From NCBI GenBank assembly GCA_019347715.1, contig JAHWKU010000002.1, positions 118,349-182,348 on the forward strand: a DNA stretch of 64,000 nucleotides, read 5' to 3'. The notes beneath the pieces are model-generated. The model saw nothing but the letters and a program-made list of their open reading frames with translations. It did no database searches and had not been told where the DNA came from. Made by a program: the position numbers and the translations under genes. Shown in pieces: positions 1 to 43,366 of this stretch; within the stretch, counting starts at the first letter, position 1, and the number at the start of each line of letters is the position of its first letter. Source of the stretch: Actinomycetota bacterium. Lineage in GTDB: Bacteria > Actinomycetota > CADDZG01 > JAHWKV01.

Positions 1-353
1 ATCTTCGTGGCTTCACTCACGATCCCTCCGGTGAACGTCTTCCACTTCAGGTTTGGTTCGACCCCGAGCATGAGTACGAAATCGGTCCCATCGTGGCTCG
101 CGAAGAACAGTTCGTTTCGCGGCCAGTCGATTCTCCTCGTCATTCCATCGGAGAGAGTGACGTTCGGACGGGTTACTTGGAAATCGTAGAAGTCCTCCGG
201 ATCGATGTGGGCAAACTTCGAGGCGTCCCACAATCCGATGAGGTGCTCCAGTGCAGTGGTCGTGGCCTGGCCCCCGTCGTTCCACCCCTGGAATGCGGCG
301 ATGAAGATTGGGCGATCCAGCTCTGGATGCTCCTCGTAGGTGATCACGGCCAT
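1..353 (-). CDS. PAC2 family protein (N-terminal part; gene continues past window start)
   Basis: Minus-strand translation from ATG at 351-353 reads MAVITYEEHPELDRPIFIAAFQGWNDGGQATTTALEHLIG..., a typical PAC2 (proteasome assembly chaperone-like) N-terminus. The frame stays open to position 1. Not in the ORF track because it runs off the edge. Confidence 0.6.
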   Translation of the reverse strand, partial: MAVITYEEHPELDRPIFIAAFQGWNDGGQATTTALEHLIGLWDASKFAHIDPEDFYDFQVTRPNVTLSDGMTRRIDWPRNELFFASHDGTDFVLMLGVEPNLKWKTFTGGIVSEATK

Positions 354-419
354 AGTCTGACCGCGGGAAACAGATTTTTCAGGGGTGTCTGCCCCCAGGG
401 TGGGTAGATAATCGAGCTG

Positions 420-1556
420 ATGGAGTTATCCGCGCCTCAACTGAGCCATGCCGAGCCCAAGACGCTGGCGCGTCTCGCCGAGACCACGGCCGAAGGGCCG
501 GTCCTTTCCTTGTTCATGGAGCTTGGTCCTGCTTTCGCTACGCCCCAGGCGAGGCAGAGCGAGCTCAATTCTCTGATGACCCTCGCTCAGCGAGAGATCG
601 AGCAAGACGGAGCCAAAAAGGAACTGAGCGAGGCGCTTCCGGTGCTCAAAGATCATCTTCAAAACGATGAGGACTGGTGGAAGGACGCCAGAGGCGCAGC
701 CGTCTACTTCTCGCCCGACGAAATCTTCGAGGTCGTGAGATGTCTCGAGCCCCTGGAAACCAAGGCCGAGGTTTCAGCTTGGCCGCACATAGAACCCCTG
801 TCGGAAGTTGTGACCGGAGATCTTTGGTGCGTGATGATGATCAGCCGCACCATAGCCCGCTACCTGATGGGTTTTCCGAGGCGACTAAGAGAGGTCGAAT
901 CCATTGAGGATGATGTCCGCGGTCAGCACTCCCAAGGTGGCTGGTCTCAGGCGAGATTTGAGCGCTCGGTAGAAAAGGACGTTCAGGATCACATCAAGAA
1001 GTCCACGGAAGAGTTGCGCGAGCTTCTGGGGAAGACACGATTTGATTGCTTGGTTGTGGTCACGCTGCCGGAGATGTGGCCGGACGTTGAAAGGGAGCTG
1101 CATTCGGATTTGAAGGACCGCCTTGCAGGGGTTTTGGAGCTCGACATCGAGCACTCATCGGTCGACGAAGTACGCAGCGAAGTAGAACAGCTCGCAGAGG
1201 TGCGTGACAACGAGAAAGAGAGGGGACTGCTCGATGCTCTGCAAGAGGGCCTCGGCAGGGGCGAGCGCGCGGCCGGCGGAGTGACGCAGGTGTTCGCTGC
1301 TCTGGCCGAGAACCGGGTGGCCACCTTTCTCGTCGATGAGTCTTTCGAGCGGGATGGAGTCGCCTGCACGTCCTGTGGGTGGGCGGGCCAGCAAGGCAAG
1401 GAGTGTCCTGTCGATTCCAAGCCGCTTCGTCAAGGTGTTGACCTGAAGGATTGGGGGATGCGAAGAACTCTCGCCAGTTCCGGCGACGTGAGGGTTGTGA
1501 AGTTCCATCCCGACCTTCAGTCCCAGGAAGGTATCGGGGCAATACTCCGATACTGA
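420..1556 (+). CDS. baeRF1 / Vms1-Ankzf1-like eRF1-domain protein (putative peptidyl-tRNA hydrolase or ribosome-rescue factor) with C-terminal Zn-ribbon
   Basis: 378 aa. The central motif RGQHSQGGWSQARFERSVEK parallels the eRF1/Dom34 GGQ-loop region (GGQSALRFARL). The C-terminus has CTSCGW...KECP cysteines. Size and architecture match the actinobacterial Rv2629-like family. Confidence 0.6.
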   Translation: MELSAPQLSHAEPKTLARLAETTAEGPVLSLFMELGPAFATPQARQSELNSLMTLAQREIEQDGAKKELSEALPVLKDHLQNDEDWWKDARGAAVYFSPDEIFEVVRCLEPLETKAEVSAWPHIEPLSEVVTGDLWCVMMISRTIARYLMGFPRRLREVESIEDDVRGQHSQGGWSQARFERSVEKDVQDHIKKSTEELRELLGKTRFDCLVVVTLPEMWPDVERELHSDLKDRLAGVLELDIEHSSVDEVRSEVEQLAEVRDNEKERGLLDALQEGLGRGERAAGGVTQVFAALAENRVATFLVDESFERDGVACTSCGWAGQQGKECPVDSKPLRQGVDLKDWGMRRTLASSGDVRVVKFHPDLQSQEGIGAILRY

Positions 1557-1569
1557 AAGGAGGTTCGTT

Positions 1570-2052
1570 ATGGGAAAGGGCAAAGCAAAACGCGAAAGTA
1601 GTGGACTAAAGAAGCTGCTACTGGCGGCGGGAGCGGGGGCCTTGGCTCTCTATCTATTCGATCCCGATCGCGGCAAGGGGCGCCGTGCGAGGGCCCGCGA
1701 CCAGATCATGGGTAAGTTGAGAAGGACCGAAAGAAGAGTGGCGAGAACCGGCCGCCATCTTGCCTCTGACGCAGAGGGACTACGGCAGAGGGTCGCTCAT
1801 TCATCGTCGGATGCCAAGACGTACGACGACGTTACTCTCGCTCAGAAAGTTTCGAGCGAGTTATTCGTTGATCCGCAGATACCGAAGGATCGGATCAACA
1901 TCAATGCTGAAGACGGCGTCATAGTCCTGCGCGGTGAAGTCGATGAACAAAAGGACGTAAAGAAGATCGAGCGACTGGTAAAGAAGATCGACGGAGTCGA
2001 AGACGTAAACAACCTTCTTCACCTGGTTGGGACACCAGCTCCAAACAAGTAA
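1570..2052 (+). CDS. BON domain-containing protein
   Basis: 160 aa with N-terminal hydrophobic segment. C-terminal ININAEDGVIVLRGEVDEQKDVKKIERLVKKIDGVEDVNNLL is a BON (OsmY-like) domain. Strong RBS AAGGAGG before the ATG. Confidence 0.7.
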   Translation: MGKGKAKRESSGLKKLLLAAGAGALALYLFDPDRGKGRRARARDQIMGKLRRTERRVARTGRHLASDAEGLRQRVAHSSSDAKTYDDVTLAQKVSSELFVDPQIPKDRININAEDGVIVLRGEVDEQKDVKKIERLVKKIDGVEDVNNLLHLVGTPAPNK

Positions 2053-2065
2053 TCCCGGAGCGGAA

Positions 2066-4267
2066 CTAGCTCCTGGATGGGACGAGGATCGCTATGGCAT
2101 CCTGCAGAGTATCTACTCCACGGATGTCGATCCTCCCGTTACGCACGCTTTCTAGGTCCTCGACCGGTACGAGAAAAAGTCCGGCGTCTGCGTCTTGAGC
2201 TGAGGATCTTTTCTGAACGAGTCCTCCAACGGCACCGACGTCACCGCCGAGCAGGATGGTTCCAGATGCTGCGATCGTTCTTCCCTGAGCAAGGTCCCGC
2301 TCGTCGAGCATGTCCGCAATGGCGAGGGCGTATGCGAGACCGGCCGATGGCCCCCCGATGTCTTCAGCTTCCTCAAAGGTGATCTCGAAGGGTAAATCGA
2401 CGTTCAAATCTCTTGTCTCAACCCAGACGCCGATCGCCACCAGCCCCTCCTGGTCCTGGAACTGTCTGCTGGCCACCGAGAGCTCGAGCGTCTCTCCGTT
2501 GCGTTCTACTTGAAAGGCAAAATTCGTACCTGCAGGCTTCGAGGTGACTATTCGTCGCAGATCGAGGATGGTTTTGATCGATTCCCCGTTGGCTGCGGTG
2601 AGAACATCGCCGTCTTGAAGGATCCCGTTTGCCGGAGCGTCGGGGAGAACTCCCAAGACTCTCGCTCCCGTCCCCTCGATCGATACGTCGAGGCCCACGG
2701 CCTGACCGGCGGCGGCTGCGGCGATCATCCGACTTTCTCGGAAGATGCTTCTCTGTTGCCGGGTGAACTCGCGTGGCTCTACCCCTTCGGGTATCAGCGC
2801 GGAGAGGGGAATGAGGTTTTGTTCGGGATGAAAGAACGCATAGATCGCCCCGAGCGCACTCGGCTGATCGACTCTAACGGTCACGAGCAGATACTCCCCG
2901 TTGACTTCGCCGGCCGGCACTCCTGTGATCTCGATTCCCTCTGTCACGTTTTCGGTAGGACCGGGCATGATCACTGCTAGAGGAGGGTGATAGAAGGCCC
3001 CAGCGGCCAGGGCGATCGCAAGAAAGACAATTACCCATACCAGCGTTCCTGCGCGCCGGGCCTGTTCCGTCGGTTCGAAGCCCCTGGCCTCCTCCAGCTC
3101 CAGGACTTTGGAGACGTCGGAGGCCGAGACGATCCCAATCAGGCGATCGTTGTCCAGCACGATGCCTCTTCCTGGGGGAGAACGGAGTGCAGCGAAGGCA
3201 TCCATGACCGGCGTTTCCGACGCAAAAGCCGGAGTCTCCTCGCGCGTGAGCATCACGCCGTGAACTCTGATCTCGTCTCGATCTTCCTGCGGAACTTCTC
3301 CTGCCAGCTTGAGCGAAATGAGTCCGACTACCGTGCCCTGCTCGGCAACTGGATAAGCCGAGTGACCTTTGGGTTTCACGACATCGTTTAGGAATTCGTT
3401 GATGGTGAGATTCGGGTCGACCACTACCGGGTCGGGGGTCATGAGGTCTCTCACCGTTAGCCCACGAAATGCCCTGCGGACTACAACGAACGCAGCTTCA
3501 CCCTGCGCCGCCTGCAGCAGGAACCAGCCGAGAAAGATGAACCAGATTCCTCCGGTGAAAGCCGAATTGAACAGACCAAGGATCCCGAAAGCGATGAGTA
3601 CATAGGCAAAAGCCTTGCCGGCTCTGGCTGCCGAGATAGTGGCTGCCGTGAAGCTTTGCTGCCGGTGCCACAGCCAAGAGCGAAGCACCCGGCCCCCGTC
3701 GAGTGGAAGGGCCGGGACCATATTGAACGCCACAACGATCGCGTTGATGCGAGCGAGGTACTCGGCCCCACCCCGAAAGGCGAGGGGGAGATCGAGGCTG
3801 GTGGCGGCGAGCGCGGCCAGATAAAAGACTCCTGCCAGGAGCACCGAAACGATGGGTCCTGCTATGGCGATCCGAAACTCTGCGCCGGCAGAGGGAAACA
3901 TGCCCTCGAATCGAGCCACTCCCCCGAAGAGCCAAAGTGTGATGTCTCCGACCTTCATCCCCTCTCTTATCGCTCTGAAGGAATGACCGAGCTCGTGCAG
4001 GAGGATAGATGCGAAAAAGACAACAGCGGTCACGATTCCCATCACCAGATAGGTGCGTTCGGATAGCCCTGGATAGGTAGATGGGAACAGCCTGTCGGAC
4101 AGCGACCAAGCGATGAGACCGAAAACGAGAACCCAGGTCCAATGCGCTCCGATCCTGATTCCCCGGACGCGCATGATCGTGAAGCTGGGCGCGAGCGGAT
4201 CTTCGGCGCCGGCCCTCTTCCGCCGGGGACGCTTTTCGGTGGAGTTCACTTCAGGCAGCTGATTCAT
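2066..4267 (-). CDS. Fusion protein: M50 site-2 protease with CBS pair, followed by a TM segment, PDZ domain and Lon-like (S16, YlbL-type) protease domain
   Basis: Single 733-aa ORF. The N-terminal half has HELGH (HExxH) and a DG motif in TM helices plus two CBS-like segments (Rip/M50 with CBS). After residue ~400 comes a hydrophobic helix, a PDZ-like region (GDVLTAANGESIKT) and the Lon C-terminal catalytic region (GPSAGLAYALAIADML). No in-frame ATG/GTG/TTG at the junction that would start a separate YlbL-like gene. Confidence 0.65.
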   Translation of the reverse strand: MNQLPEVNSTEKRPRRKRAGAEDPLAPSFTIMRVRGIRIGAHWTWVLVFGLIAWSLSDRLFPSTYPGLSERTYLVMGIVTAVVFFASILLHELGHSFRAIREGMKVGDITLWLFGGVARFEGMFPSAGAEFRIAIAGPIVSVLLAGVFYLAALAATSLDLPLAFRGGAEYLARINAIVVAFNMVPALPLDGGRVLRSWLWHRQQSFTAATISAARAGKAFAYVLIAFGILGLFNSAFTGGIWFIFLGWFLLQAAQGEAAFVVVRRAFRGLTVRDLMTPDPVVVDPNLTINEFLNDVVKPKGHSAYPVAEQGTVVGLISLKLAGEVPQEDRDEIRVHGVMLTREETPAFASETPVMDAFAALRSPPGRGIVLDNDRLIGIVSASDVSKVLELEEARGFEPTEQARRAGTLVWVIVFLAIALAAGAFYHPPLAVIMPGPTENVTEGIEITGVPAGEVNGEYLLVTVRVDQPSALGAIYAFFHPEQNLIPLSALIPEGVEPREFTRQQRSIFRESRMIAAAAAGQAVGLDVSIEGTGARVLGVLPDAPANGILQDGDVLTAANGESIKTILDLRRIVTSKPAGTNFAFQVERNGETLELSVASRQFQDQEGLVAIGVWVETRDLNVDLPFEITFEEAEDIGGPSAGLAYALAIADMLDERDLAQGRTIAASGTILLGGDVGAVGGLVQKRSSAQDADAGLFLVPVEDLESVRNGRIDIRGVDTLQDAIAILVPSRS

Positions 4268-5270
4268 TCAACCTGTCGATCAAAAGGCGAAGTCTTCCCG
4301 CATGCAGTCGGTGGAATTTGATTGCGATGCGCGGAAGATCGGGGACATCATCATCTCTCTTTTCTGCCGGAGATGGTTCCGCCCGCTCGATGGGGGCGGT
4401 AAGCGCGTCCGAAAACTCATCGAAGAGTTCTTTCAAAACGGATTCGGGGGGTTCGACATTTAGTCTCAGGATTAGAGTGCCTCCCACGAATCTCTGAGAG
4501 TGATAGACGCGATAGAAGTTCTCGATCTCCTCGACGGCATCCTCGATCCGGTGGTAGCAGCGATAGAGATTCAGGTCGCTGTCATCGATCATCCTTCGCT
4601 TAAGGAGCTCGTTTCTTAGGTGCTCGTCGAAGGCCTTCCAGTAAGTGCCACCTTCCGGCTCGAGCATCACGATCGGATGAAGGTCGCTTTTGCCCGTTTG
4701 CACCAGCGTCAAGAGTTCGTAAGCCTCGTCTAGAGTCCCGAAGCCCCCGGGAAGAAGGACGAATGCATCGGCCTCTTTCATAAACATGAGTTTGCGCGTG
4801 AAGAAGTATTTGAAGTTGATCAGCTTCGGATCTCCCGCGATCACCGGGTTCGGTTCGGCCTCGAACGGAAGACGGATGTTGACGCCGAAGGATCTCGCAC
4901 CACCTGCCCCCTCGTGACCCGCTTCCATGATCCCGGGGCCTGCCCCGGTGACCACCATCCAGCCGAGGTCGGCGATCAGCTTCGAGAAATCTCTGGCCAC
5001 CTCGTATTCCGGGTCGCCCTTGGCGGTGCGGGCCGACCCGAAGATGCTCACTTTGCGGGTATCGCGGTAAGCGCCGAAGATCTGAAAGGCGTAGCGCATT
5101 TCTTTGAGCGCCGAGTTTGCGAGGTTGCGATCGGTACGGGAGATGGGATCGCGGGCCATGCGCATAACGGTCGCCAGCATCTCAAACATGAGATCGTCGC
5201 CGGGGGCATAGCGCTCCAGAACGCCATGCAGCTCCCGATCCAGTTCCGCATCGCCGCTGCCATACTTCAT
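4251..5270 (-). CDS. LOG family protein (TIGR00730 Rossmann fold, putative cytokinin riboside 5'-monophosphate phosphoribohydrolase-like)
   Basis: 339 aa with the PGGFGTLDE motif and the GSAR...G signature of the LOG/YvdD family. Overlaps the downstream protease gene by 17 nt, so they form an operon. Confidence 0.75.
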   Translation of the reverse strand: MKYGSGDAELDRELHGVLERYAPGDDLMFEMLATVMRMARDPISRTDRNLANSALKEMRYAFQIFGAYRDTRKVSIFGSARTAKGDPEYEVARDFSKLIADLGWMVVTGAGPGIMEAGHEGAGGARSFGVNIRLPFEAEPNPVIAGDPKLINFKYFFTRKLMFMKEADAFVLLPGGFGTLDEAYELLTLVQTGKSDLHPIVMLEPEGGTYWKAFDEHLRNELLKRRMIDDSDLNLYRCYHRIEDAVEEIENFYRVYHSQRFVGGTLILRLNVEPPESVLKELFDEFSDALTAPIERAEPSPAEKRDDDVPDLPRIAIKFHRLHAGRLRLLIDRLNESAA

Positions 5271-9608: not shown

Positions 9609-10355
9609 TCAATGACCGAGGATCTTGGAAAGAAACGCCTTTGTGCGATCTTGCTTGGGCGTGGAGAAGAACGCCTCTGGGGCCGCCTCCTCCACGACCC
9701 GGCCCTCGTCCATGAAGACGACTCGCTTAGCGGCATGTCGTGCGAAACCCATCTCATGGGTGACGACGATCATCGTCATCCCTTCCTTTGCAAGGTCCAG
9801 CATGACGTCGAGGACCTCCTTGATCATCTCCGGGTCGAGCGCAGAAGTAGGTTCGTCGAACATCATCAGTTTTGGATTCATCGCAAGCCCGCGAGCAATC
9901 GCTACCCGCTGCTGCTGCCCTCCCGAGAGCTCCGCGGGATATGAGTCTGCCTTCTCGGGGATGCCGACTTTCTCCAGGAGCTGCTCGGCCATGTTCCTCG
10001 CTTCGGCCTTCGGAACCCTCTTCACTTCGACGGGACCGAGCATTACGTTGTTGATGACGCTCAAATGAGGAAAGAGGTCGAACTGCTGAAACACCATCCC
10101 GATCTCAGACCGAAGTTTATGGATCGATCTTCCGGCCCTGGAGACGTCCTTGCCGTCGAAGTGGACTTCTCCAGAATCGACCGGCTCCAGGCCGTTAACG
10201 CAGCGCAGAAGAGTCGATTTGCCTGAGCCGGAAGGGCCGAGGACTACGACCACCTCTCCCATTCCTACGGAAAGATCGACGTCTTTAAGGACGTGAAGAC
10301 GGCCGAAGCTCTTGTTGACCTTGCTTAGTTCTACTAAAGCGCTGCCCGAGCTCAT
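9609..10355 (-). CDS. Amino-acid ABC transporter ATP-binding protein (GluA/GlnQ-like)
   Basis: Walker [13 protein letters not shown] signature [15 protein letters not shown], Walker [13 protein letters not shown]-loop. Confidence 0.9.
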
Positions 10356-10416
10356 GCGACGATGCTATGCCGAGACTTTCAATCGGCGCTACCATGCTTG
10401 CTCAAGCAGGAGGCAT

Positions 10417-11457
10417 ATGAAAACCCACAGTAAAGACTTCAAGCTCCTCATAGATAAATACAAAGACGATGGATGCGTCGAGCTTTCGGTCGTCCACTCC
10501 CTCGTTGAGCAAAATGACCTCGACGAGAACCAGGCCGCCGAGGTCTATGAGCGGCTCGACGCCGAGGGCATCGACGTCGAAGACGATTGCAGCACGGAAT
10601 CCGAGGAGACACGGATCAACTATGAAGACCTGGGGTCGTTTTCTGCAGACACCCTCGGGCTCTTCCTGCAGGAGATCGGCCGATTCCCCCTGCTCACTCG
10701 CGAAGAGGAAGTTGAACTGGCGGAGCGCATCGACAGAGGTGACCTCGAAGCCAAAAACTTGATGATCAACTCCAATCTTCGGCTCGTCGTTTCTATAGCA
10801 AAGAAGTATCAGGGACAGTTGTCGCTTCTCGATCTCATCCAGGAGGGAGTGCTCGGACTCATTAGAGCCGTAGAGAAGTTCGACCGCACCAAAGGATTCA
10901 AGTTTTCAACTTACGCAACATGGTGGATCCGCCAAGCCATCGGACGCGCGGTCCAAACGCAGGCGCGCACGATTCGTCTTCCGGTTCATCAGGTTGAAAG
11001 GGAGTGGAAGGTCGCACGCGTTGGGTCCGAACTCACCGAGAAGCTCGGGAGAAAGCCCACAGACGAAGAGATTGCAGCTGCCGCCGACCTAACGATCGAG
11101 CAGCTGAAGGACCTGTGGAATTCGCCAAGGATTGTGGCGAGTCTCGATCAGCCGGTTGGAGGCGAGGGAGACACTCCTCTTGGGGAACTGAGGGTGATCG
11201 CCGAACCTATTGACGGAGAGATCGAGCTAAATCTCAAAGAGGAGAGTCTAAGAACCGCATTGGCGCGGCTTACGCAACGGCAGCAAGACGTCATCAATCT
11301 GCGGTTCGGCCTCGACGGAGAGGGGCCGCTCACCTTAAAAGAAATCGGAGAGAGGCTCGGGGTCTCAAGAGAACGTGCTCGCCAAATCCAGTCCGAGGCC
11401 CTGGCGGCTTTGGCGCAGGCGCGAGAGCTTGCGGCGCTGGTACCGGTCGCCAGCTAG
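10417..11457 (+). CDS. RNA polymerase sigma-70 family factor, principal/group-1-like (regions 1.1, 1.2, 2, 3, 4 present)
   Basis: Start refined to ATG 10417, preceded by AGGAGG. The ORF-track start at 10312 would overlap the convergent ATPase gene. Conserved [33 protein letters not shown] (region 2) and [24 protein letters not shown] (region 4.2). The N-terminus resembles RpoD region 1.1. Confidence 0.8.
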
Positions 11458-12111
11458 TTAGCGGGGACCAGCTCTCCGTGCTCGTCGAATCGATCGAGCT
11501 CCTGGGGCCCGTGCTTTCTCAGCTCGTCGATGGCTTTCTCCACGGCAGCAGCGTCGCCGGAATGTACCCCGACCAGAACCCTGCCTTCGGATAGCTCGTC
11601 GCGGTAGCGCATCTTCCAGAAGCCTCCGATCACGGCGCCCCCAGTTGCTCCGGCCGCGGCCGCGCCGGCCGTCGCTCCCCAGATCCCGGCCCCTACGGCG
11701 GGGCCGATGCCGGGAATGCCGAATGCGATTGCCCCCGCGATAAAGCCAAGGGTGGCGCCGGCAGTCCCGCCGATAGCAGACCCCTTTGCAACTCCGCCTC
11801 CTACCTCCGAGACGGTCTCGGCATCCTCCTGGCGCATCCGATCTGGAGGAACGTCATGACCGGCATGCGAGGCAGCCTCCTCTTCGTCGTGGCGCTCTGC
11901 GGGCGTGAAGGTCTCTTCGGTTCCTCGGGCAAGAAACGAGATGGACTTCTCTTCGATCCCGGCACTCTTCAACGAGTCGATTGCATGACGTGCGGTCTCC
12001 GGGTCGGCAAACGAGGCGATGACGTTGTGTTTCTCGAAGCTCTGTTCGGTTTGGTCTGTGGTTTCTTCCTCGCCGGAGGTTTTGACTTCCTTTTCGTCCA
12101 TGAATCGGTGG
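11454..12111 (-). CDS. General stress protein-like (YflT/DUF1269-type) with glycine-zipper membrane segment
   Basis: Start refined to MDEKEVK at ATG 12109-12111 (complement). N-terminal [20 protein letters not shown] and C-terminal [24 protein letters not shown] repeats resemble stress-protein domains. Long Gly/Ala-rich hydrophobic zipper in between. Confidence 0.45.
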
Positions 12112-12156
12112 TACCCCGGTGGCAGGCAAGGCAAACAAAAGGGGTAAATAGCCCTT

Positions 12157-12939
12157 GTGAGAATCCTTCTAGGCACCTCAGGCTGGCAATACCGTGACTG
12201 GAAGAGCACGTTTTATCCCAAGGAAGTTACGCAGAGTGAGTGGCTGGAACACTACGCGCAGAACTTTCGCACCGTCGAGGTCAACAACACCTTCTACCGC
12301 TTGCCCGAGCGCAAAACTTTTGAGGACTGGCGCGCAAGAACGCCTGACGATTTCATCTTCACGATCAAGGCCAGCCGTTACCTGACTCACATCAAGAGGC
12401 TTCAAGAACCGCAGGAGCCGGTCTCGAGATTGATGGATCGCGCCGCCGGCCTTGGGTCAAAGCTCGGGACGGTGCTGCTTCAGCTTCCTCCCACTTTGCA
12501 GAAGGATGGAGCCGCACTCGCAGAGACGCTCGATGCGTTCGGCAGTTCCGTTCAGATCGTGATGGAGTTCAGACACGCCTCTTGGTTCGATGAAGAGATC
12601 CGGCACTTGTTAGAAGACAAGGGTGCTTCATTCTGCATGGCCGACCGCGGTTCCCGTGCGATCACGCCAATCTGGCGGACCGATTCCGTCCTGTACCTGC
12701 GTTTCCATGAGGGCCGTGCAAACCCGCGGCCATGTTACGGGAGGGATTCGCTTGCCGGCTGGGTCGATCGGATCAGCGGGCTCGCCAGGAAAGAAGACGA
12801 TGTCTATGTCTACTTCAACAACGACACCCGCGCCTGCGCGATCAGAGACGCGGGTGTCTTTGCAAAGCTGGCATCGGAGCGCGGCATGGAGGTGACCAGA
12901 GCTCCCGATTCGATCCAGGTTCATGGGGTAACGAATTGA
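12157..12939 (+). CDS. DUF72 (YecE/UPF0759) domain protein
   Basis: GTG start. N-terminal ILLGTSGWQYRDW...FYP...VEVNNTFYRLP is the hallmark of DUF72. Confidence 0.8.
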   Translation: MRILLGTSGWQYRDWKSTFYPKEVTQSEWLEHYAQNFRTVEVNNTFYRLPERKTFEDWRARTPDDFIFTIKASRYLTHIKRLQEPQEPVSRLMDRAAGLGSKLGTVLLQLPPTLQKDGAALAETLDAFGSSVQIVMEFRHASWFDEEIRHLLEDKGASFCMADRGSRAITPIWRTDSVLYLRFHEGRANPRPCYGRDSLAGWVDRISGLARKEDDVYVYFNNDTRACAIRDAGVFAKLASERGMEVTRAPDSIQVHGVTN

Positions 12940-23613: not shown

Positions 23614-25782
23614 GTGCAATTCCTGAAGGATCTCATCGACCGCGACCCGGCCACGTCGTTTTGGACCGGCCTGCTATTCCTCATGGTGGTCACGTCCGCT
23701 CTCTTCGGCTTTCCTGCACCGCTCGGCATCGTGGCTCTTGGCGGAGTGATCGGGGGGCTGATCGCGTTCATCTCTATCGGGCTGGTCCTGGTCTATCGCA
23801 CGAACCGGATCATCAACTTCGCCCACGCCGACATCGGCGCTACAACGGTCATCCTTGCCATTCTTTTGGTTAGGGAAGTCCAGATCAGCTATGTCACCGG
23901 CGTTCTGATCAGTCTTGGGTCTGCATTGCTGCTGGGCGCTCTCATTGAGAAGACGGTAGTCCGCAGGTTCTTCAAGGCTCCCCGTCTCATCCTTACCGTC
24001 GCAACGATTCTTCTCGCGCAGGTGCTCATCGGGTTTCAGGTTTTGATGCCTGCCCTTTTCCGGGCGGACATTGTTAGCCCAAACTTTCCTACTCCGTTTA
24101 CTTGGAGGTTCTCGATCCCGGACCCAACCGGCTCCACTCCCCCGGTGAACTTCGATGGCAACCACTTGCTTGCGATCATCGCGGTGCCGGTCGTGGTGAT
24201 CGCACTCACGCTGTTTCTCAGAAACACCTCGGTAGGAAAGGCGGCCAGGGCAGTTGCAGACAATGCAGAACGAGCGTCACTTCTCGGGATCCCAGTCCGC
24301 AGAGTCTCAACGGTTGTATGGATTGTGGCAGCTGGACTGTCGGCTCTCGGTGCCCTGCTGCGTGCTCCCACAGTCGGTCTCTCGGTAACGGGAGGGGCCT
24401 TCGGCGCATCGCTCTTAGTGAGAGCACTCGCTCCCGCCGTGGTAGCCCGGATGGAGAACCTCAGGACGACCTTCGTGGCTGCTGTGGTCCTTGGGATCAT
24501 CGATCAGGCCGCTTTTTATCGCACGCTCGACGAGTCGGTCAGCAATACCATCCTGTTCGTGATCATCCTTGGCGCTCTTCTACTTCAGAGGCGGGGGTTG
24601 GTTACGAGGGCAGACGAAGTCGAAGCTGGGACCTGGCAATCGGTAAAGGAGATCCGACCGGTTCCCAAGGAACTGAAAAGTGTTCCCGAGGTGAGGTATG
24701 GACTCCCTGCGCTGGTTCTGGGGGCGTTGGCGGCATTAGTCATCTACGGTTTGTTCGCCACCAACTTTCGACTCGAAGGACTCACGCTGATCATGATCTA
24801 CGGGATCATCGGGATCTCTCTCGTGATCCTCACCGGGTGGGCCGGACAGGTTTCGCTTGGGCAGATCGGTTTCGTAGCGGTCGGTGGGGCGATATGCGGG
24901 AGACTCGTGCTCGACAACGAGATGAATCTTCTGCTTGCGCTGCCGATCGCGGGCCTCGTGGGCGCGGTAGTGGCGATAGCGATCGGACTGCCGGCCCTTC
25001 GGATAAGAGGGTTGTTCCTAGCAGTTTCGACCGTGGCCTTCGCGCTGTTCATCGCGACCATGGGCCTCAGCCCGGAGTACTTCGGGTGGATGCTTCCTTC
25101 CGGCAGGATCCCGCGCCCCAGCGTCTTTGGAGTTCAACTCACTTCGAAGCCGCTCTTTTACTTCGTGCTCGTCGTATTGATCCTGGTGATGGCGTCGGTA
25201 CGAAGCCTGAGAAAGAGCCGTACCGGGAGAGTTTTGATCGGAGCTCGGGACAACGAAAGGGCGGTCCGCACCTTCGGCGTAAACGTGACCTGGGCGCGAC
25301 TCACTTCGTTTGCCCTCTCCGGGTTTTACGCCGCGATCGCAGGGGGGCTTTTTGCCATCCACCAAAATGACGTTACCCCGAGCGCCTTCACGGTGCAGAA
25401 AGGTCTCGAGATCTTTGTGATGGTGGTCATCGGCGGGCTGGGATCGGTTCCCGGCGTCCTTCTCGGGGCCACCTTTTACGGCGCGAGCCAGCTGTTCTTT
25501 ACCTCCGTCGTGGCAAGATTGGCCAACGGCTTTTTGGGGCTCACACTTTTGATGATCATCCCAGGAGGTTTGGGACAAGTTCTGTTCGGATGGCGCGACG
25601 CTGTATTGAGGTTCATCGCGAAGCGTAAAGGCGTGATCGTGCCCAGCCTCGTCGCGGACGTACGGGTGGAGGAATCGGTGCTTCTTCCCGGCGCGCGGCG
25701 CTCGGAGACCGAAGAACCCGATTCTATAGAAGTGATCGAGGAGGAGGCTCTCGCGGAGTCCCCGGCTGGAGGTGAGGGATGA
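23614..25782 (+). CDS. Fused branched-chain amino-acid ABC permease (LivH-like + LivM-like domains)
   Basis: 722 aa with two permease modules in one polypeptide. Stop overlaps the ATG of the next gene. Confidence 0.8.
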   Translation: MQFLKDLIDRDPATSFWTGLLFLMVVTSALFGFPAPLGIVALGGVIGGLIAFISIGLVLVYRTNRIINFAHADIGATTVILAILLVREVQISYVTGVLISLGSALLLGALIEKTVVRRFFKAPRLILTVATILLAQVLIGFQVLMPALFRADIVSPNFPTPFTWRFSIPDPTGSTPPVNFDGNHLLAIIAVPVVVIALTLFLRNTSVGKAARAVADNAERASLLGIPVRRVSTVVWIVAAGLSALGALLRAPTVGLSVTGGAFGASLLVRALAPAVVARMENLRTTFVAAVVLGIIDQAAFYRTLDESVSNTILFVIILGALLLQRRGLVTRADEVEAGTWQSVKEIRPVPKELKSVPEVRYGLPALVLGALAALVIYGLFATNFRLEGLTLIMIYGIIGISLVILTGWAGQVSLGQIGFVAVGGAICGRLVLDNEMNLLLALPIAGLVGAVVAIAIGLPALRIRGLFLAVSTVAFALFIATMGLSPEYFGWMLPSGRIPRPSVFGVQLTSKPLFYFVLVVLILVMASVRSLRKSRTGRVLIGARDNERAVRTFGVNVTWARLTSFALSGFYAAIAGGLFAIHQNDVTPSAFTVQKGLEIFVMVVIGGLGSVPGVLLGATFYGASQLFFTSVVARLANGFLGLTLLMIIPGGLGQVLFGWRDAVLRFIAKRKGVIVPSLVADVRVEESVLLPGARRSETEEPDSIEVIEEEALAESPAGGEG

Positions 25783-28700
25783 GCCGAGTTCGTGGATTCG
25801 TAGAGAAGCGCTGGCCGTTCATGGAGGGCCGGGAGATCTTCCCTCTTGGCCTTCTGTTGATCCTGAACGCGGTCGACGAGTTCGATGTCTCCGCATTCAA
25901 CACCCTTGCACCCGAGATCCGCGATGCCTTCAACCTAAGCAATACGCAGTACGGAGTCATAGCCGCGCTGACGACAGTCCTGGTCCTTCTGAGTGGTCTT
26001 CCGATTGGGTTTATTGGAGACCGGCTGCCCAGGGTCAAGTTGGTCGCGGTCGCCGCGGTTCTGTGGGCAAGCATGTCGATCCTCACCGGACTCGCTCCCG
26101 TGATCTGGGTACTCATAATCGCCCGACTCGGAAGCGGTTTCGGACGGGTTGCCAACGAAGCCATCCATACGAGCCTGCTGACCGACTACTATCCGCAGCA
26201 CATCCAGGGTCGGGTCTTTGGCGTCCACCGTCTGGGAAACCCCGCGGGCAGAGTGATTGGCTCGTTCGCGGCGGGCGCCATCGCCGCGCCGTGGCTATTC
26301 GGAGATTGGAGATGGGCGTTCTTCATCGTCTCCATCCCAACCTTTCTCATAGCGGGATTTGCCCTCAAGCTAAGAGAGCCCGTCCGGGGGGAGGCCGAGG
26401 ACTATGACCTGGCCGCGGAGGCTGCCAAAGAATCGTCCATCCCATTTTCTCGCGGGTGGAGATGGCTCTTTTCGGTACCGAGTCTCAAGCGTTTTTACAT
26501 CTCGGCTTTCTTTGGAGGAGGAGTCATCTTCGCCCTCTCTGCGTTCCTGGCCTTGTTCTTCGAGGACGAGTTCGGGGTCAGTGAGTTCGGCCGGGGTTTG
26601 ATCAACGCCGGAAATGGAGCGGCCCAGTTCGCCGGCACGCTGATCGGCGGAATAGTTGCCGATCGGATGCGCCGAGTGGGCCTCGGCAAGATCGCTTTCG
26701 TGGCAGGGCTGGCAGTGGCCGGGATCGGAGTCGGCGTCGTGTTGATCGGGGCCTCTCCGGTTTTGCTTGTCGGGCTGATGGGGAGCTTCGTCGCGTGGTT
26801 CTCGATAGGGTTCTGGACCCCAACCCATACTTCGGTGTTCGTGATCGTCCTGCCTGCGCGTATCCGGAGCCTCGGCATCGGCATCGGGGTGATGTTCTTT
26901 GGAGTGGGCGGATTCGTTTTCACGATTTGGGCCGGTGCCATCAGTGATGCATCGGGAATCCGGGCCGCCATAGCGACACTCGCCCCCGGCATGTTCGTGG
27001 CGGCTGGGGTCTATCTCGCTGCCGCTCGCCACGTGAATGCCGACGGACAAAGAGCGCTAACGGCTTTGGCTCTCGAAGTCGAACTGAGGCAGGAGCGGCT
27101 GACCGCAGGGCAGCAGGCGATGCTGGTGTGTCGTGGGGTGGACGTTGCCTACGAAGGGGTGCAGGTTCTGTTCGGCGTCGATTTCCAGGTGGAACAGGGG
27201 GAGATCGTCGCGCTTCTGGGAACGAACGGCGCCGGCAAATCCACATTGCTGAAGGCCATCTCAGGAGTGGTCCAGCCAATCGGGGGGGCGGTTTTCTTCG
27301 AGGGAGAAAACATCACGTACTACGACGCCCCCGAGGCGGCAAGGGCCGGAATCTCCCAGGTCCCCGGGGGCCGCGGGGTCTTCCCCTCTCTCACTGTGAA
27401 AGAGAACATCGAGCTCGCTTCCTGGATGTTCCGGAAGGACAAGGAGTTCGTGAAGAGCAGTGTCGATGAAGTCCTGGACATATTCCCGATCCTTAGAGAG
27501 CGCTGGGATACGAAAGCCGGCAACCTCTCAGGGGGAGAGCAGCAGATGCTCACTCTCGCCCAGGCCTTCATTGCCAGACCGAAGCTGATAATGATCGATG
27601 AGCTGTCCCTCGGATTGGCACCGAAGCTGGTGGATCAACTGCTGGAGTCGGTGAAGGCCATGCATGCCCGCGGGATGACCATCATCTTGGTGGAGCAATC
27701 TGTGAACATCGCTCTGACGGTTGCCCAGAGAGCTTATTTCATGGAGAAAGGCGAGATTCGCTTCAGTGGGCCTGCCGCTGAGCTTCTGGGCAGAACCGAT
27801 TTGATCCGGTCGGTGTTCCTCGAGGGGGCGGGACGAGACGGAGCGGGCAAACGCACCACAATCAAGGAGAGGAAAACAGCCTCCGTCGATCCATCCGAAG
27901 AGATGGCCCTCACGACCGTTGGATTGTCGGCTTCTTACGGGGGTATCCGCGCTCTCGACGAGGTGAGCCTCAATCTGAAGAGCGGTCATATCCTCGGAGT
28001 GATCGGTCCCAATGGAGCCGGAAAGACCACTCTCTTCGACGTCATATCTGGTTTCCTCAAGCCAGACTCCGGACGCATCTTATTGATGGGAGATGACATC
28101 ACCGAACTCTCGGCAGACGAGCGCGCCAGGAGGGGTCTCGGTCGTTCCTTCCAAGATGCGAGGCTTTTCCCATCTCTCACGGTGTCGGATAACATCGCCC
28201 TCGCCCTCGAACGCCACCTTGATGTTAAGGAGCCGGTAGCAGCTGCCCTAGGACTCCCCGCCGTTAGAAGCTCGGAGAGAAAAGCATCGGGAAAGGTCGA
28301 AGAACTGATCGAACGGATGGGGCTCGAGGCATTCCGGGACAAGTTCGTTCACGAACTCTCCACCGGGAGCCGGCGGATCGTCGACCTTGCCTGTTCGCTC
28401 GCCCATGAACCGAAAGTGCTCATCCTGGATGAACCATCATCTGGGATCGCCCAGGCCGAGACCGATGCCCTCGCCCCTCTGCTGTTGAGGGTTAAGGATG
28501 AGCTCGGATGCAGTCTTCTGGTGATCGAGCATGACATCCCCCTGGTCTCATCCGTTGCCGACGAGCTGATGGCATTGGATCTGGGGCGAGTGATCTCCAG
28601 GGGATCCCCTTCTGAGGTGGTAAATGACCCCAGAGTGGTGACTGCGTATCTGGGCACCAAGGAAGAGGTCATCGCTCGATCCGGGGGCCTGAAGAAAAAA

Positions 28701-28805
28701 GCGGACAAGAGGGCCCCGAGGAAAAAGCCCTCAGGGCGTGTCAAGAAACCGACAAATACCAAAAAGCGCAGAGTGGAGGACAATAGCCACCGGCGGCGAA
28801 CCTAA
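25779..28805 (+). CDS. Tripartite fusion: MFS transporter domain + LivF-like ABC ATPase + LivG-like ABC ATPase, with Lys-rich C-terminal tail
   Basis: 1008 aa. Residues 1-~420 show 12 TM helices with an MFS-like pattern. Then GEIVALLGTNGAGKSTLL..LSGGEQQMLTLAQ (LivF-like). Then GHILGVIGPNGAGKTTLF..LSTGSRRIVDLACS (LivG-like). C-terminus KKKADKRAPRKKPSGRVKKPTNTKKRR. Confidence 0.75.
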   Translation: MSRVRGFVEKRWPFMEGREIFPLGLLLILNAVDEFDVSAFNTLAPEIRDAFNLSNTQYGVIAALTTVLVLLSGLPIGFIGDRLPRVKLVAVAAVLWASMSILTGLAPVIWVLIIARLGSGFGRVANEAIHTSLLTDYYPQHIQGRVFGVHRLGNPAGRVIGSFAAGAIAAPWLFGDWRWAFFIVSIPTFLIAGFALKLREPVRGEAEDYDLAAEAAKESSIPFSRGWRWLFSVPSLKRFYISAFFGGGVIFALSAFLALFFEDEFGVSEFGRGLINAGNGAAQFAGTLIGGIVADRMRRVGLGKIAFVAGLAVAGIGVGVVLIGASPVLLVGLMGSFVAWFSIGFWTPTHTSVFVIVLPARIRSLGIGIGVMFFGVGGFVFTIWAGAISDASGIRAAIATLAPGMFVAAGVYLAAARHVNADGQRALTALALEVELRQERLTAGQQAMLVCRGVDVAYEGVQVLFGVDFQVEQGEIVALLGTNGAGKSTLLKAISGVVQPIGGAVFFEGENITYYDAPEAARAGISQVPGGRGVFPSLTVKENIELASWMFRKDKEFVKSSVDEVLDIFPILRERWDTKAGNLSGGEQQMLTLAQAFIARPKLIMIDELSLGLAPKLVDQLLESVKAMHARGMTIILVEQSVNIALTVAQRAYFMEKGEIRFSGPAAELLGRTDLIRSVFLEGAGRDGAGKRTTIKERKTASVDPSEEMALTTVGLSASYGGIRALDEVSLNLKSGHILGVIGPNGAGKTTLFDVISGFLKPDSGRILLMGDDITELSADERARRGLGRSFQDARLFPSLTVSDNIALALERHLDVKEPVAAALGLPAVRSSERKASGKVEELIERMGLEAFRDKFVHELSTGSRRIVDLACSLAHEPKVLILDEPSSGIAQAETDALAPLLLRVKDELGCSLLVIEHDIPLVSSVADELMALDLGRVISRGSPSEVVNDPRVVTAYLGTKEEVIARSGGLKKKADKRAPRKKPSGRVKKPTNTKKRRVEDNSHRRRT

Positions 28806-40423: not shown

Positions 40424-43366
40424 TTACTTGGCCTTCAGCACAAGGATCGCGATGTCGTCACGAGGACGACCATCGGAGAACTTGACCGCCTCTTTCTCGA
40501 TCGATGCCGCGATGGTGTCGGCGGACTTGCCGGCACATCCGGCAAGGCAGGCCTCCAGTCGATCCTCTCCGAAGATCTCCGCGCCTTCCGGTGACCTGGC
40601 CTCGATCACCCCGTCGGTGTAATAAACGACGACATCTCCCGGCTCAAGGGTGAGGTGTTGCTCTTCCAGCGATATCTCTTCGAACAACCCCAGCATCGTG
40701 CCGGGAAATCCGATGCGTTCGATGGTTCCATCCTTGCGGATAACGATCGGTTGGGGATGGCCGGCGCACACCACAGTCAGGTGCGCTCCGTCCGCAGTGG
40801 GTTCGAGGCGGGTATAAGCCACCGTGCAGAATTGGTCTTGAGCGCTTCGTTCGATAACAGCCTCGTTCAGCGTTGAAAGCATCCTGCGAGGCTCCCTTTC
40901 CTGCATTGCTTCCGCGTACACTGTCGATCTGACGAATGAGGTCAGGGCGGCCGCCGTTGCCCCCTTGCCCGAGACGTCTCCGATGACAATGCCCCATCGG
41001 GTCTGGCCGTATGGGAAGAGATCGTAAAAGTCGCCACCGACTTCGGTTGCTTCTTCGATTCCCCCGGCCGCGCGGTACCGCGCTCCGATCTTCTCGAAGC
41101 CTGGAATCTCGGGAAGCCTTCTCGGCAGGAGGCTCTCTTGGAGAGTTCTGGCGATTTTGCTTCGCTCTTCGTATCGAAGAGCGTTGTCGAGCGCAAGGCT
41201 GACTCTTCTGCCCAGCTCTTCTGCCAGTTGAAGATCTTCCTGGTTGTAACGCCGTCCGGAGCCACTCGAGAAGAAAGAGGCAGCTCCGAGGACTCGGCCT
41301 CGCGCTTGGAGCGGGACTACGATCATCGAATCAAGTCTCAGATCCCTGAGTGCTTCTTGATTCCCAGACTCACCGGTCAACTGGGTGAGGATGTCGTCAT
41401 CGATCTCGGAAAAGACCGTGCTCTTGCCGCTTCGCAAAGTTCTGATGATTGGATGGTCCTCACCAGGTCCTTGCAGGTAAGAGTCCAGAGCTGCCATGGA
41501 ACCCACCTGAAGATCATCGCCTTGCGCGGATGCAAGGCGTCTTGGCAATTGGCCCTCTTCCATGGCATCGACAAGGCAGTAATCGCACAGGAAAGGAGTC
41601 GCTAACTTCATGATGTTGGAAAGCGTCGTCTTGTAGTCGAGCGACGATGCGAGGATCGTGCTTGCCTCAGCCAAGAACATCCGAACCTGCTGAAGACGGC
41701 GCTGCTCGGTGATATCTCTCAGATAGCCAGTAAATAGAGGGTATGCAGATCCTTCGGTCTTAACCGGCGTGATCGCAAGTTCTACGAGTATCTCGGTCCC
41801 ATCAGATCGGAGCGCGGGAAGCTCCAGGCGCTTGCCGGCGAGCCTGGATACGCCGGTTTCCCTGTACCTTCTGAGTCCTTCCCGGTGCTCGTCTCTCAAA
41901 GACGGGGGGACCAGCGTGTCTTCGATCTTCTTGCCGATAATGTCATCACGGGCCCACCCGAAAGTCTTTTCTGCGGCTGGGTTGAACTCGATGATCTTGC
42001 CATCATGGTCCGCGGTGATGATGCAGTCGAGAGCAGACTCGAGGATTGCGGCCTTTCTAGCCTCACTCTCGTGAACCGCCTGTTCGGTCCTCAGTCGGAT
42101 TATTCGCTGACCGATCTCGATACCAACGGAATCCATCAGCTGCATCAGTTCGTTGTCAGGCTGCTCGATCTCTTTGCTGAAGAACTCGACCACTCCCAGA
42201 AATTCAAAGGCGCTGCGTACTGGGATCGCGAAGGCTCCATGAAGGTTTGCCTTTCCGGCCAGGCTTGCTCTAGAGAAGTCGCTGTCGGTTTCTGCGTCTC
42301 GGATCCACAGAGGTCTCTTGGACTGCCAAACCCTTCCGGGCAGGCCTAGGCCCTTCTCCAGACGCAGTCGAAGAGTCTCGGCTATGAATTCCTCCTTTTC
42401 TTCGCCTCCCGTGTGCCAGACCGCGACGCACCTCATGTGACTATTTCTCTCCTCGACGATCCAAAGAGCCCCCATCTCCCAGCCGAGGTTGCTGCAGATA
42501 GCCTCGAGAATTCTGGGGCCGGCCTCCTCCAGGGAATTGACTTCCATCAATGCTTGTGCCGCGGCATGAACTGCGGCAAGCCGCCGTTCCGCTTCCTTGA
42601 GCCGTGTGACGTCGACCATGCGCCCGCGCAGCCTGATCGTCGACCGTGATCCTCTTGGGGAAACCTCCGCTCTGTCACTCAACCAAACGTCCCCACCATC
42701 GGAGCGAACCATCCGATAGGTGAGCTCGTGATCCTTGGCCTCGACGACCGCCTCCTGTCTGGCCCTAACGACAAGCTCTCGATCCTCCGGATGGATGTGG
42801 TTCGCCCAGAAGAATGAATCCTCGTACCAGTGCTCCACCGGGTAGCCGAGAATCCGTTCCGCTCGCTTGCTGACGTAAGTGAAGCGAAGCGGTTCGGTTT
42901 CCGCTTCCCAGACTATTGCGTCGACCGAATCGACCAGACTGCGCAACTCGTCTCTCTCCGAGTCGGCCTGCAGTCGCCGATCGTGTTCTACGTGATAGAG
43001 GACAGACCACTTTCTGAGAAGCCCTGCGCTGACGGCCACCGCCACAGCGGCAAAAGAAACGACTAGGAAGTGCTCTAGGGGCATGTCCTCACGTCCGGTG
43101 ACGAGATAAAAGTAGGCCGCATATATGGCCACCAGGCCTGCCGCAACGAGACCCGAAAGGAGGCCACCCACAAAGCTCGCCAAAGCGATGGCAGCCAGCA
43201 GTACTGAAAAGACGACCACGTCGCTCACGGCGAGAAAAGACAGGACCTCGAAGGAAATCGCCAGGACCACCACCGCTCCTGGGCCGGCCCAAAGCCGCCA
43301 GCCGGTCAGGACCCCGCGCGAAGCCGGGCCAGACGTATCTTTGTGAGATCCCAAGGCAGTTGACAA
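40424..43366 (-). CDS. Membrane-associated PAS-GAF-PAS-GAF sensor fused to PP2C/SpoIIE-type serine phosphatase
   Basis: 980 aa. N-terminal TM helices, two PAS-like and two GAF-like regions. C-terminal PP2C/SpoIIE metal-binding aspartates (GGDFYD..., VIGDVSGKG, YTDGV). The TTG start is the most upstream option; the real start may be internal. Confidence 0.7.
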   Translation of the reverse strand: MSTALGSHKDTSGPASRGVLTGWRLWAGPGAVVVLAISFEVLSFLAVSDVVVFSVLLAAIALASFVGGLLSGLVAAGLVAIYAAYFYLVTGREDMPLEHFLVVSFAAVAVAVSAGLLRKWSVLYHVEHDRRLQADSERDELRSLVDSVDAIVWEAETEPLRFTYVSKRAERILGYPVEHWYEDSFFWANHIHPEDRELVVRARQEAVVEAKDHELTYRMVRSDGGDVWLSDRAEVSPRGSRSTIRLRGRMVDVTRLKEAERRLAAVHAAAQALMEVNSLEEAGPRILEAICSNLGWEMGALWIVEERNSHMRCVAVWHTGGEEKEEFIAETLRLRLEKGLGLPGRVWQSKRPLWIRDAETDSDFSRASLAGKANLHGAFAIPVRSAFEFLGVVEFFSKEIEQPDNELMQLMDSVGIEIGQRIIRLRTEQAVHESEARKAAILESALDCIITADHDGKIIEFNPAAEKTFGWARDDIIGKKIEDTLVPPSLRDEHREGLRRYRETGVSRLAGKRLELPALRSDGTEILVELAITPVKTEGSAYPLFTGYLRDITEQRRLQQVRMFLAEASTILASSLDYKTTLSNIMKLATPFLCDYCLVDAMEEGQLPRRLASAQGDDLQVGSMAALDSYLQGPGEDHPIIRTLRSGKSTVFSEIDDDILTQLTGESGNQEALRDLRLDSMIVVPLQARGRVLGAASFFSSGSGRRYNQEDLQLAEELGRRVSLALDNALRYEERSKIARTLQESLLPRRLPEIPGFEKIGARYRAAGGIEEATEVGGDFYDLFPYGQTRWGIVIGDVSGKGATAAALTSFVRSTVYAEAMQEREPRRMLSTLNEAVIERSAQDQFCTVAYTRLEPTADGAHLTVVCAGHPQPIVIRKDGTIERIGFPGTMLGLFEEISLEEQHLTLEPGDVVVYYTDGVIEARSPEGAEIFGEDRLEACLAGCAGKSADTIAASIEKEAVKFSDGRPRDDIAILVLKAK

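Follow-up and report, generated by a model that had tools for sequence, protein, structure and literature searches.

The question raised by positions 420-2052 of this 64,000-nt stretch of actinobacterial DNA (the window) is what a bacterial aeRF1 homologue (baeRF1) does at the ribosome when the catalytic Gln of its GGQ loop has become a Trp. The interval holds two plus-strand open reading frames, and a first-pass annotation had read them as a baeRF1/Vms1-like peptidyl-tRNA hydrolase or rescue factor beside a BON-domain protein, in a cluster resembling the Rv2629 dormancy region. We conclude that the two genes probably make up an operon for a Balon-type ribosome hibernation factor (baeRF1 family 10) and a membrane-anchored BON stress protein. 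The features on which the argument turns are as follows.

402..407, plus strand: GGGTAG, -10-like element of a putative stress promoter of SigF/SigB type, 13 nt before the ATG at 420
420..1556, plus strand: bacterial aeRF1 homologue gene starting with ATG, 378 aa, a member of Pfam baeRF_family10 and, broadly taken, of the Balon family (hereafter baeRF10)
933..950, plus strand: QGGWSQ loop (aa 172-177), equivalent of the aRF1/eRF1 GGQ loop, placed by ungapped aRF1 alignments and by conservation
1365..1415, plus strand: Cys3-Asp knuckle (C316, C319, C329, D332) in an insert of the C domain (aa ~311-338), recognised by co-conservation
1557..1563, plus strand: Shine-Dalgarno sequence AAGGAGG, 6 nt before the BON start codon
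1570..2052, plus strand: membrane-anchored BON-domain protein gene, 160 aa

Identity and fold of the 378-aa protein

The best Pfam match of the 378-aa protein is baeRF_family10 (PF18854), which scores 74.1 bits against a cut-off of 27.1 and aligns aa 122-257 with model positions 1-140 of 143. The loop and the following helix also match acVLRF1 (PF18859; 46.2 bits, cut-off 27.1, model positions 22-80 of 130), and there are weaker matches to baeRF families 2, 3 and 12. A match to domain 2 of eRF1 had been proposed as a check on the first reading; the Pfam eRF1_2 match itself is sub-threshold (18.6 bits vs 27.1), and it is the other aeRF1 profiles that match. When a profile built from 37 homologues was searched against the PDB, the best match was Msmeg1130 over its full length (8v9j_z, deposited as "ribosome hibernation factor Balon", E=3.5e-33), followed by aRF1 (2e-23) and Rv2629 (3.6e-18). 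The sequences of these two mycobacterial proteins were reconstructed from the PDB profile alignments and then scanned against Pfam: Msmeg1130 falls in baeRF_family10 (124.5 bits), as the 378-aa protein does, and Rv2629 falls in baeRF_family2. The protein is thus a baeRF1, as first annotated, but the label "Rv2629-like" puts it in the wrong family.

The fold points the same way. The AlphaFold2 model has a mean pLDDT of 88.9, and its top Foldseek match is 8v9l_z, ribosome-bound Msmeg1130 with EF-Tu on the 70S ribosome (E=3e-24, TM score 0.75), followed by aRF1 4af1 (E=4e-19) and then by Psychrobacter urativorans Balon, eRF1 and Rv2629, with Pelota also among the matches. Model and matches together give the three-domain fold of the aeRF1 superfamily, with approximate boundaries at aa 1-128 for the N domain, 129-262 for the RNase-H-like M domain and 263-378 for the Pelota-like C domain. 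The NIKS motif of aRF1 4af1 falls on a non-conserved, gapped segment of the family profile, so that NIKS is lacking here as in the Balons. A conserved P-[HFY]-[IVL]-x-P-L stretch (aa 121-127, WPHIEPL) aligns with PFIHPL of Msmeg1130 and is a candidate for the HP motif, by which the N domain of Balon contacts the decoding centre; the Balon papers number no HP residues. The protein is strongly acidic, with 45 K+R against 70 D+E.

What the family is thought to do has changed. Rv2629 and Msmeg1130 bind to the A site of the ribosome and inhibit translation about 15-fold, and the characterised members are Balon ribosome hibernation factors in the A site, not peptidyl-tRNA hydrolases (PMC10901736); the hydrolase or rescue role first given to the family is outdated in this respect. 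NCBIfam now names these families ribosome hibernation factors. The 378-aa protein aligns over its full length with the Rv2629 family model (NF052289, 54.6 vs a cut-off of 320) and the MSMEG_1130 family model (NF052288, 53 vs 480), and it scores 19.6 vs 330 with the AOC03_06830 family model (NF052287). All three scores fall short of their cut-offs, and the protein is therefore an equivalog of none of these families. There is no second baeRF copy in the window; another 378-aa open reading frame, at 52180-53316, was considered as one and rejected, being a D-Ala-D-Ala ligase.

The QGGWSQ loop and the Cys3-Asp knuckle

HMMER aligns GQHSQGGWSQARFER of the 378-aa protein, without gaps, over GKHKMGGQSQRRYER of aRF1 3agk and over KGGQSAQRFARL of aRF1 4af1. 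Because both alignments are ungapped, GGW occupies the exact GGQ position, which confirms the first placement of QGGWSQ in the GGQ loop. Loop length and flanks are those of aRF1; Trp stands where aRF1 has its catalytic Gln, and two residues further on a Gln is retained, giving a GGxSQ pattern. The loop has low pLDDT in the AlphaFold2 model, as expected for a flexible tip, and hhalign sets G174-W175 on the Gly-Trp (AGW) of Rv2629, a factor that in experiments does not release peptides.

Because homologue searches based on words or patterns, as our first two were, would overstate how well a motif is conserved, conservation was measured again with phmmer, which is free of a word index. This search covered 1.84 billion representatives and gave 1847 hits at E<=1e-3; residues were counted in 151 alignment rows holding the best 150 representatives, at a mean identity of ~35%. 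G173 is conserved in 141 rows, G174 in 144, W175 in 119, S176 in 130, Q177 in 131 and R182 in 135. None of the 150 relatives has Gln at position 175: apart from the 119 rows with Trp, the residue there is Leu, Arg, Thr or Met. Judged from these alignments, the conservation of QGGWSQ is not a matter of chance. A genome scan for GGWSQA[RN][FY][QE] found at least 571 species-level loci, and the best 80 of these are all from Thermoleophilia or other Actinomycetota metagenome-assembled genomes, at no more than 40% identity. The string "GGWSQ" does not occur in the searchable literature.

This loop can be read in two ways. On the one hand, GGQ is absent, as in the Balons, but the Gly-Gly and SQxR[FY]xR are kept, unlike in the characterised Balons. 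On the other hand, GGWSQ (aa 173-177) has the GGxSQ (GxuQ) form of the acVLRF1/Vms1-like hydrolases, a form that Burroughs and Aravind describe in aVLRF-1 and acVLRF-1 (PMC6514570). If the second resemblance were the functional one, the protein would be an active peptidyl-tRNA hydrolase or ribosome rescue factor, with the GGWSQ loop in the peptidyl-transferase centre and Gln177 directing the water in the way predicted for acVLRF1/Vms1-type proteins; it would free nascent chains from stress-stalled ribosomes, possibly ahead of parking them. The two glycines, S176, Q177 and R182, each present in 130-144 of the 151 rows, the aRF1 length of the loop and the acVLRF1 Pfam match across it (46.2 bits, above 27.1) speak for this, and the Gly-Gly backbone weighs more than the Gln side chain in release-factor catalysis. 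In addition, baeRF-1 family 10 has a conserved Gln and could be active (PMC6514570). Against it, a bulky Trp sits at the classical catalytic position, and Msmeg1130 keeps the Gln aligned with Q177 yet is described as a GGQ-less hibernation factor that inhibits translation (PMC10901736). The NCBIfam acVLRF1 model (NF041024) scores 20.7 vs 125, and the N domain, which acVLRF1 lacks, is kept, so the Vms1-like architecture first proposed does not hold. There is also no RtcB, tmRNA or ArfA-type rescue partner adjacent to the gene. We regard an active hydrolase as the main rival reading, possible but rather unlikely.

The second aRF1-like element lies in the C domain. The insert at aa ~311-338 carries the pattern C316-x2-C319...C329-P-x-D332, that is, three Cys and a co-conserved Asp rather than four Cys. 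The insert is absent from about 30 relatives, and in the approximately 118 that keep it, all four residues are present in about 102-109. The Zn ribbon or Cys cluster of the first-pass annotation therefore stands as a metal-knuckle insert, though not as a four-Cys one, and metal binding by the Cys3-Asp knuckle is predicted from co-conservation. In the profile alignment the insert falls at the position of the aRF1 zinc ribbon and also of the Cys-free beta-hairpin insert of Msmeg1130, its residues being aligned with the Msmeg1130 segment GTVGADGSLYADGEIAPHSHAATKD, so that the protein has the C-domain beta-hairpin insertion of the Balons. According to the Balon authors, this conserved hairpin is the EF-Tu contact (PMC10901736), and Burroughs and Aravind proposed that the two-strand C-domain insert is a degenerate zinc ribbon (PMC6514570). 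The knuckle of the 378-aa protein looks like the undegenerated state of that insert.

With aRF1 as the second-best PDB match (E=2e-23) and with both loop and zinc knuckle aRF1-like, one might suppose that the protein is a stop-codon-dependent class-I release factor acquired from archaea. However, the class-I aRF1/eRF1 model TIGR03676 scores 42.5 vs a cut-off of 234.7, there is no GGQ, and the NIKS region is unconserved. Moreover, RF1/RF2 are retained in the bacteria with baeRF-1 proteins and are never replaced by them (PMC6514570). We consider a class-I release factor the least credible of the explanations.

Putative promoter, BON gene and neighbourhood

The element upstream of baeRF10 points to stress regulation. 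GGGTAG is kept in close relatives although the remaining intergenic sequence diverges. Among 87 homologous loci (L001-L086 and the window), GGGTA precedes an in-frame start codon by 10-13 nt (mode 11) in 52, whereas 11 control pentamers in the same placement each occur in 1-5 of the 87. Counted over upstream regions, GGGTA is present in 62 of 82, vs 5.6% of background windows. A position matrix adds G[GT]TT at -20 to -17, giving G[GT]TT-N16-GGGTA, and the SigF consensus of M. smegmatis is GTTT-N14-19-GGGTA (PMC4694148, PMC6448022); the sigma factor itself is not encoded in the window. In M. smegmatis the motif stands 8-11 nt from the start codon of many SigF-dependent genes, and 56 promoters induced by hypoxia are marked by GGGTA (PMC4694148, PMC6448022). 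Because GGGTA lies so near the start codon, the mRNA would be leaderless or near-leaderless, with a leader of ~5-6 nt or less. The conserved element supports a stress-regulated gene, and the signature, as far as the upstream sequences can tell, implies that these genes belong to a general-stress sigma regulon across Thermoleophilia. For MSMEG_1130, whose SigF control was to be checked in the start-site map of M. smegmatis, that map records no transcription start. A sigma-70 promoter scan of positions 1-2400 and an Rfam scan of the window returned nothing.

Three other genes of the window touch on sigma factors and stress. The minus strand at 40424-43366 encodes a 980-aa PAS-GAF-PAS-GAF-SpoIIE (PP2C) protein; sensor phosphatases of this kind feed into the partner-switching control of SigB/SigF-type sigma factors. 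At 10312-11457 on the plus strand lies the gene for a sigma-70 factor of primary or group 2 type (regions 1.1 to 4), adjoined by a minus-strand gene (11454-12209) whose product weakly matches YflT, a heat-induced stress protein.

The BON gene begins 13 nt after the stop of baeRF10, with no terminator-like hairpin called between them, which argues that the two genes form an operon. In its product, aa 13-30 (nt 1606-1659) form a transmembrane helix, an Arg-rich linker with a weak likeness to YtxH follows, and aa 86-153 (nt 1825-2028) make up the BON domain. The BON domain, named correctly from the start, scores 56.1 bits against PF04972 (cut-off 27), whereas the OsmY equivalog model scores only 37.4 vs 174; the product is therefore a single-BON membrane protein and not OsmY proper. 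Of the 78 loci whose flanks are long enough, 14 have a BON homologue directly downstream of baeRF10; they fall into two distinct clades, that of the window and one of Thermoleophilaceae, and a further pairing is found in locus L086. The BON homologues of these loci all have an N-terminal transmembrane helix, a basic linker and a BON domain. From this recurrence, the linkage of BON to baeRF10 is, on genomic grounds, real, and OsmY-type (BON) genes are among the recurrent neighbours of Balon (PMC10901736). The charge on both sides of the helix is positive (+3 before it and +4 in the following 20 residues); because both flanks are positive, the topology, and hence whether the BON domain faces the cytoplasm, is ambiguous. 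A 160-aa open reading frame upstream in locus L085 was considered as a BON gene and set aside, since it has no Pfam hit, is not matched by the window's BON protein in tblastn and is probably a spurious call.

The genes flanking the operon are the following.

1..353, minus strand: 5′ part of a PAC2-family gene, divergent and extending beyond the window, a syntenic neighbour in the window's clade
2066-4267, minus strand: M50-CBS-PDZ-LonC fusion protease gene, 733 aa, convergent with the baeRF10-BON operon
4251-5270, minus strand: LOG/TIGR00730 gene, 339 aa, overlapping the protease gene by 17 nt

The order downstream is thus BON, M50-CBS protease, LOG and not, as first written, BON, LOG, CBS-M50, and the PDZ-Lon half of the protease had gone unseen. 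The protease joins an M50 site-2 protease and two CBS domains to a PDZ-LonC (SepM-like S16) serine protease. This architecture was considered as a novelty and rejected as such: it is common in Actinomycetota, with at least 120 full-length homologues of like architecture at 49% identity or more. The LOG protein has an N-terminal extension of ~70 aa ahead of its Pfam match, and because the two genes overlap by 17 nt, LOG and the fusion protease are probably co-transcribed; the pair is adjacent in L086 too. The PAC2 (proteasome-assembly-chaperone-like) gene shares a 66-nt intergenic region with baeRF10 and is syntenic in L084 (2-733) and L086 (10905-11747); we do not claim that it is functionally linked to baeRF10.

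Does this neighbourhood make the operon part of a dormancy cluster? If it did, the protein would be an Rv2629-like member of a DosR-controlled group with BON, LOG and an Rv2625c-like M50-CBS protease. Rv2629 is indeed homologous (hhalign probability 98.6%), and in L002 Usp genes, FtsH and DUF2267 surround baeRF10. However, Rv2629 belongs to another Pfam subfamily, and a DosR box (TTSGGGACTWWAGTCCCSAA), the operator that the first-pass annotation had suggested seeking, finds no match anywhere in the window with up to 3 mismatches allowed; what is conserved upstream is the SigF-type GGGTA and not an operator palindrome. Across 83 related loci, M50-CBS is within 10 kb of baeRF10 in only 5 and LOG is near it in none, so LOG was rejected as a conserved partner. 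The block of CDF, SBP, LOG, fusion protease, BON, baeRF10 and PAC2 is kept whole in the close relatives L003 and L086 only, and the more distant fusion-protease loci L087 and L088 have no baeRF gene. The link to protease and LOG is therefore lineage synteny. What survives of the dormancy or stress cluster is the stress regulation suggested by GGGTA and the BON linkage; DosR control of a cluster is already largely refuted, and we consider it highly improbable.

The occasional neighbours at other baeRF10 loci are Usp, Hsp20, ClpB, DUF2267, HD, M50-CBS and FtsH. The neighbourhood of L002 (1-13134; L060 is similar), where baeRF10 stands amid M50-CBS, FtsH, two Usp genes, DUF2267, a class-3 FBPase and P-type ATPases, is closer to the mycobacterial Rv2623-Rv2629 region than is that of the window itself. 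Among the Solirubrobacterales and Thermoleophilaceae, 12 of 72 loci (L015, L016, L020, L022, L044, L068, L072 and others) have a gene for an RNase H/RVT_3 protein upstream of baeRF10 on the same strand, and 9 of 70 have one for a polyprenyl synthetase downstream of it.

The setting also bears on a possible role in conflict, in which the operon would be an anti-phage or inter-bacterial component that targets or repairs ribosomes. Rescue pathways with baeRF-1 have been proposed to answer ribosome-targeting effectors (PMC6514570). Here, however, PADLOC defence models give no hit among the four genes, no toxin, nuclease or mobile-element genes are adjacent, and the surroundings are chromosomal and of housekeeping type (Ddl, RecG, a primary-type sigma factor, ABC transporters). 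We think a conflict role very unlikely. Elsewhere in the window, a 1008-aa open reading frame (25779-28805, plus strand) is unusual in fusing two ABC ATPase domains to a transporter domain of the major facilitator superfamily (MFS; aa 26-343).

Proposed mechanism and comparison with known systems

Taking these results together, we hold with moderate confidence that a stress-induced, non-hydrolytic A-site hibernation factor is the most likely reading of baeRF10. Beyond homology, fold and motifs, the steps proposed here are inferred from the work on Msmeg1130, Rv2629 and Balon (PMC10901736). Under stress, a SigF/SigB-like alternative sigma factor would transcribe the operon from the GGGTA promoter; the mRNA of the first gene would be near-leaderless, and the BON gene would be served by its own strong Shine-Dalgarno site. 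By homology to Msmeg1130 and Rv2629, both solved in complex with the ribosome, the 378-aa protein would go into the ribosomal A site as a mimic of tRNA or aRF1. Its N domain, lacking NIKS, would bind to the decoding centre but read no stop codon there. The M-domain loop would reach the peptidyl-transferase centre, where the Gly-Gly turn would present Trp175 in place of the catalytic Gln, as an aromatic plug and not as a water-activating residue, while the knuckle insert of the C domain may contact EF-Tu, as this element does in Balon homologues. The net effect would be to silence translation and to shield idle ribosomes at their active sites. The co-expressed BON protein would most likely have a parallel envelope or osmotic-stress role without touching the ribosome.

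Several observations weigh against a non-hydrolytic hibernation factor. No part of the protein is better conserved than the loop, which keeps the exact aRF1 length together with GG, SQ and RFxR, whereas in characterised Balons the loop at the peptidyl-transferase centre is variable and without Gly-Gly; a loop so conserved fits a catalytic role too. Family 10 was itself singled out among the baeRF-1 families as a possibly active hydrolase because of its conserved Gln (PMC6514570). The scores given above lie far under all three equivalog cut-offs for hibernation factors, pairwise identity to Msmeg1130 is just 24%, and neither Balon's HP motif nor its bL27 trap was located in the 378-aa protein. 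The -35 region of this window is a poor match (GGGGTGT, 382-388), and a tblastn search of the window and loci with E. coli RaiA and HPF as queries found no match, although so insensitive a probe does not show that HPF/RaiA is absent. To our knowledge, no GGWSQ-type protein has been studied experimentally.

The conserved loop and knuckle also admit a more specific proposal, which we consider doubtful: GGW(S)Q may mark a mechanistically distinct aRF1-like branch of the Balons, an evolutionary intermediate that keeps both elements and whose loop enters the peptidyl-transferase centre, either to hydrolyse peptidyl-tRNA or to plug the A-site cleft with the aromatic Trp175. In the hydrolysing variant, peptidyl-tRNA on ribosomes caught mid-translation at the onset of a SigF-type stress response may be cut, so that the factor would release first and then hibernate. 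More speculatively still, the Arg-rich linker of the BON protein could tether parked ribosomes to the membrane.

How much of this is new? Family 10, with its conserved Gln, was defined in 2019 (PMC6514570); one member of the family was characterised in 2024, in work that also noted the BON/OsmY association (PMC10901736; Helena-Bueno et al. 2024). Because the family, a characterised member and the BON/OsmY link were already known, the operon is an ordinary member of a described family. What goes beyond the searchable literature, by our reading of the alignments, is a very large branch that appears uniformly to keep GGW(S)Q and the Cys3-Asp knuckle, and its apparently conserved, SigF-type, near-leaderless promoter. 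As far as we know, Balon-type factors are a recently recognised and widespread means of silencing and protecting ribosomes in bacteria, and only three have been studied. The present branch is uncharacterised and large (at least 571 species-level loci) and is found mostly in soil Thermoleophilia and other Actinomycetota. It has the most release-factor-like loop and a metal knuckle, which bears on whether peptide release was lost abruptly or gradually, and its SigF-type promoter would tie ribosome hibernation to the general stress response of uncultured actinobacteria in a concrete way that can be tested.

Among known systems, the closest is Msmeg1130 (MSMEG_1130, mycobacterial Balon; PDB 8v9j and 8v9l), which shares with the 378-aa protein its Pfam family, the three-domain layout, the lack of NIKS, the length of the peptidyl-transferase-centre loop, a Gln opposite Q177 in the alignment and the site of the C-domain insert. 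It differs in that its loop, QAPQERAGQMREQR, has neither Gly-Gly nor Trp, its insert has no Cys ligands, and neither a BON partner nor a SigF-type promoter is documented for it. Rv2629 of the M. tuberculosis DosR regulon (PDB 8v9k) is likewise a three-domain baeRF1, with a fold TM score of 0.64, but it has 18% identity, no GG-x-SQ and no Cys knuckle. P. urativorans Balon (AOC03_06830; 8rd8, 8rdv and 8rdw) shares superfamily and fold (Foldseek E ~1e-17 to 6e-19, TM score ~0.6), and it too is the product of a stress-operon gene with OsmY-type neighbours reported (PMC10901736). However, its identity is 12-13%, it was not matched in the PDB sequence search, its lasso loop is kept out of the catalytic centre, and its insert is a plain beta-hairpin with no Cys knuckle. 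The acVLRF1/Vms1-like proteins share the GGxSQ loop motif and a partial Pfam match over cut-off, but acVLRF1 has no N-terminal codon-recognition domain, whereas the 378-aa protein has a full N domain. Finally, aRF1 (4af1, 3agk) shares H-x-x-GG-x-S-Q-x-R-[FY]-x-R, the domain order and the site of the metal-knuckle insert, and the 378-aa protein departs from it in its Trp for the catalytic Gln, its lack of NIKS and its bacterial host.

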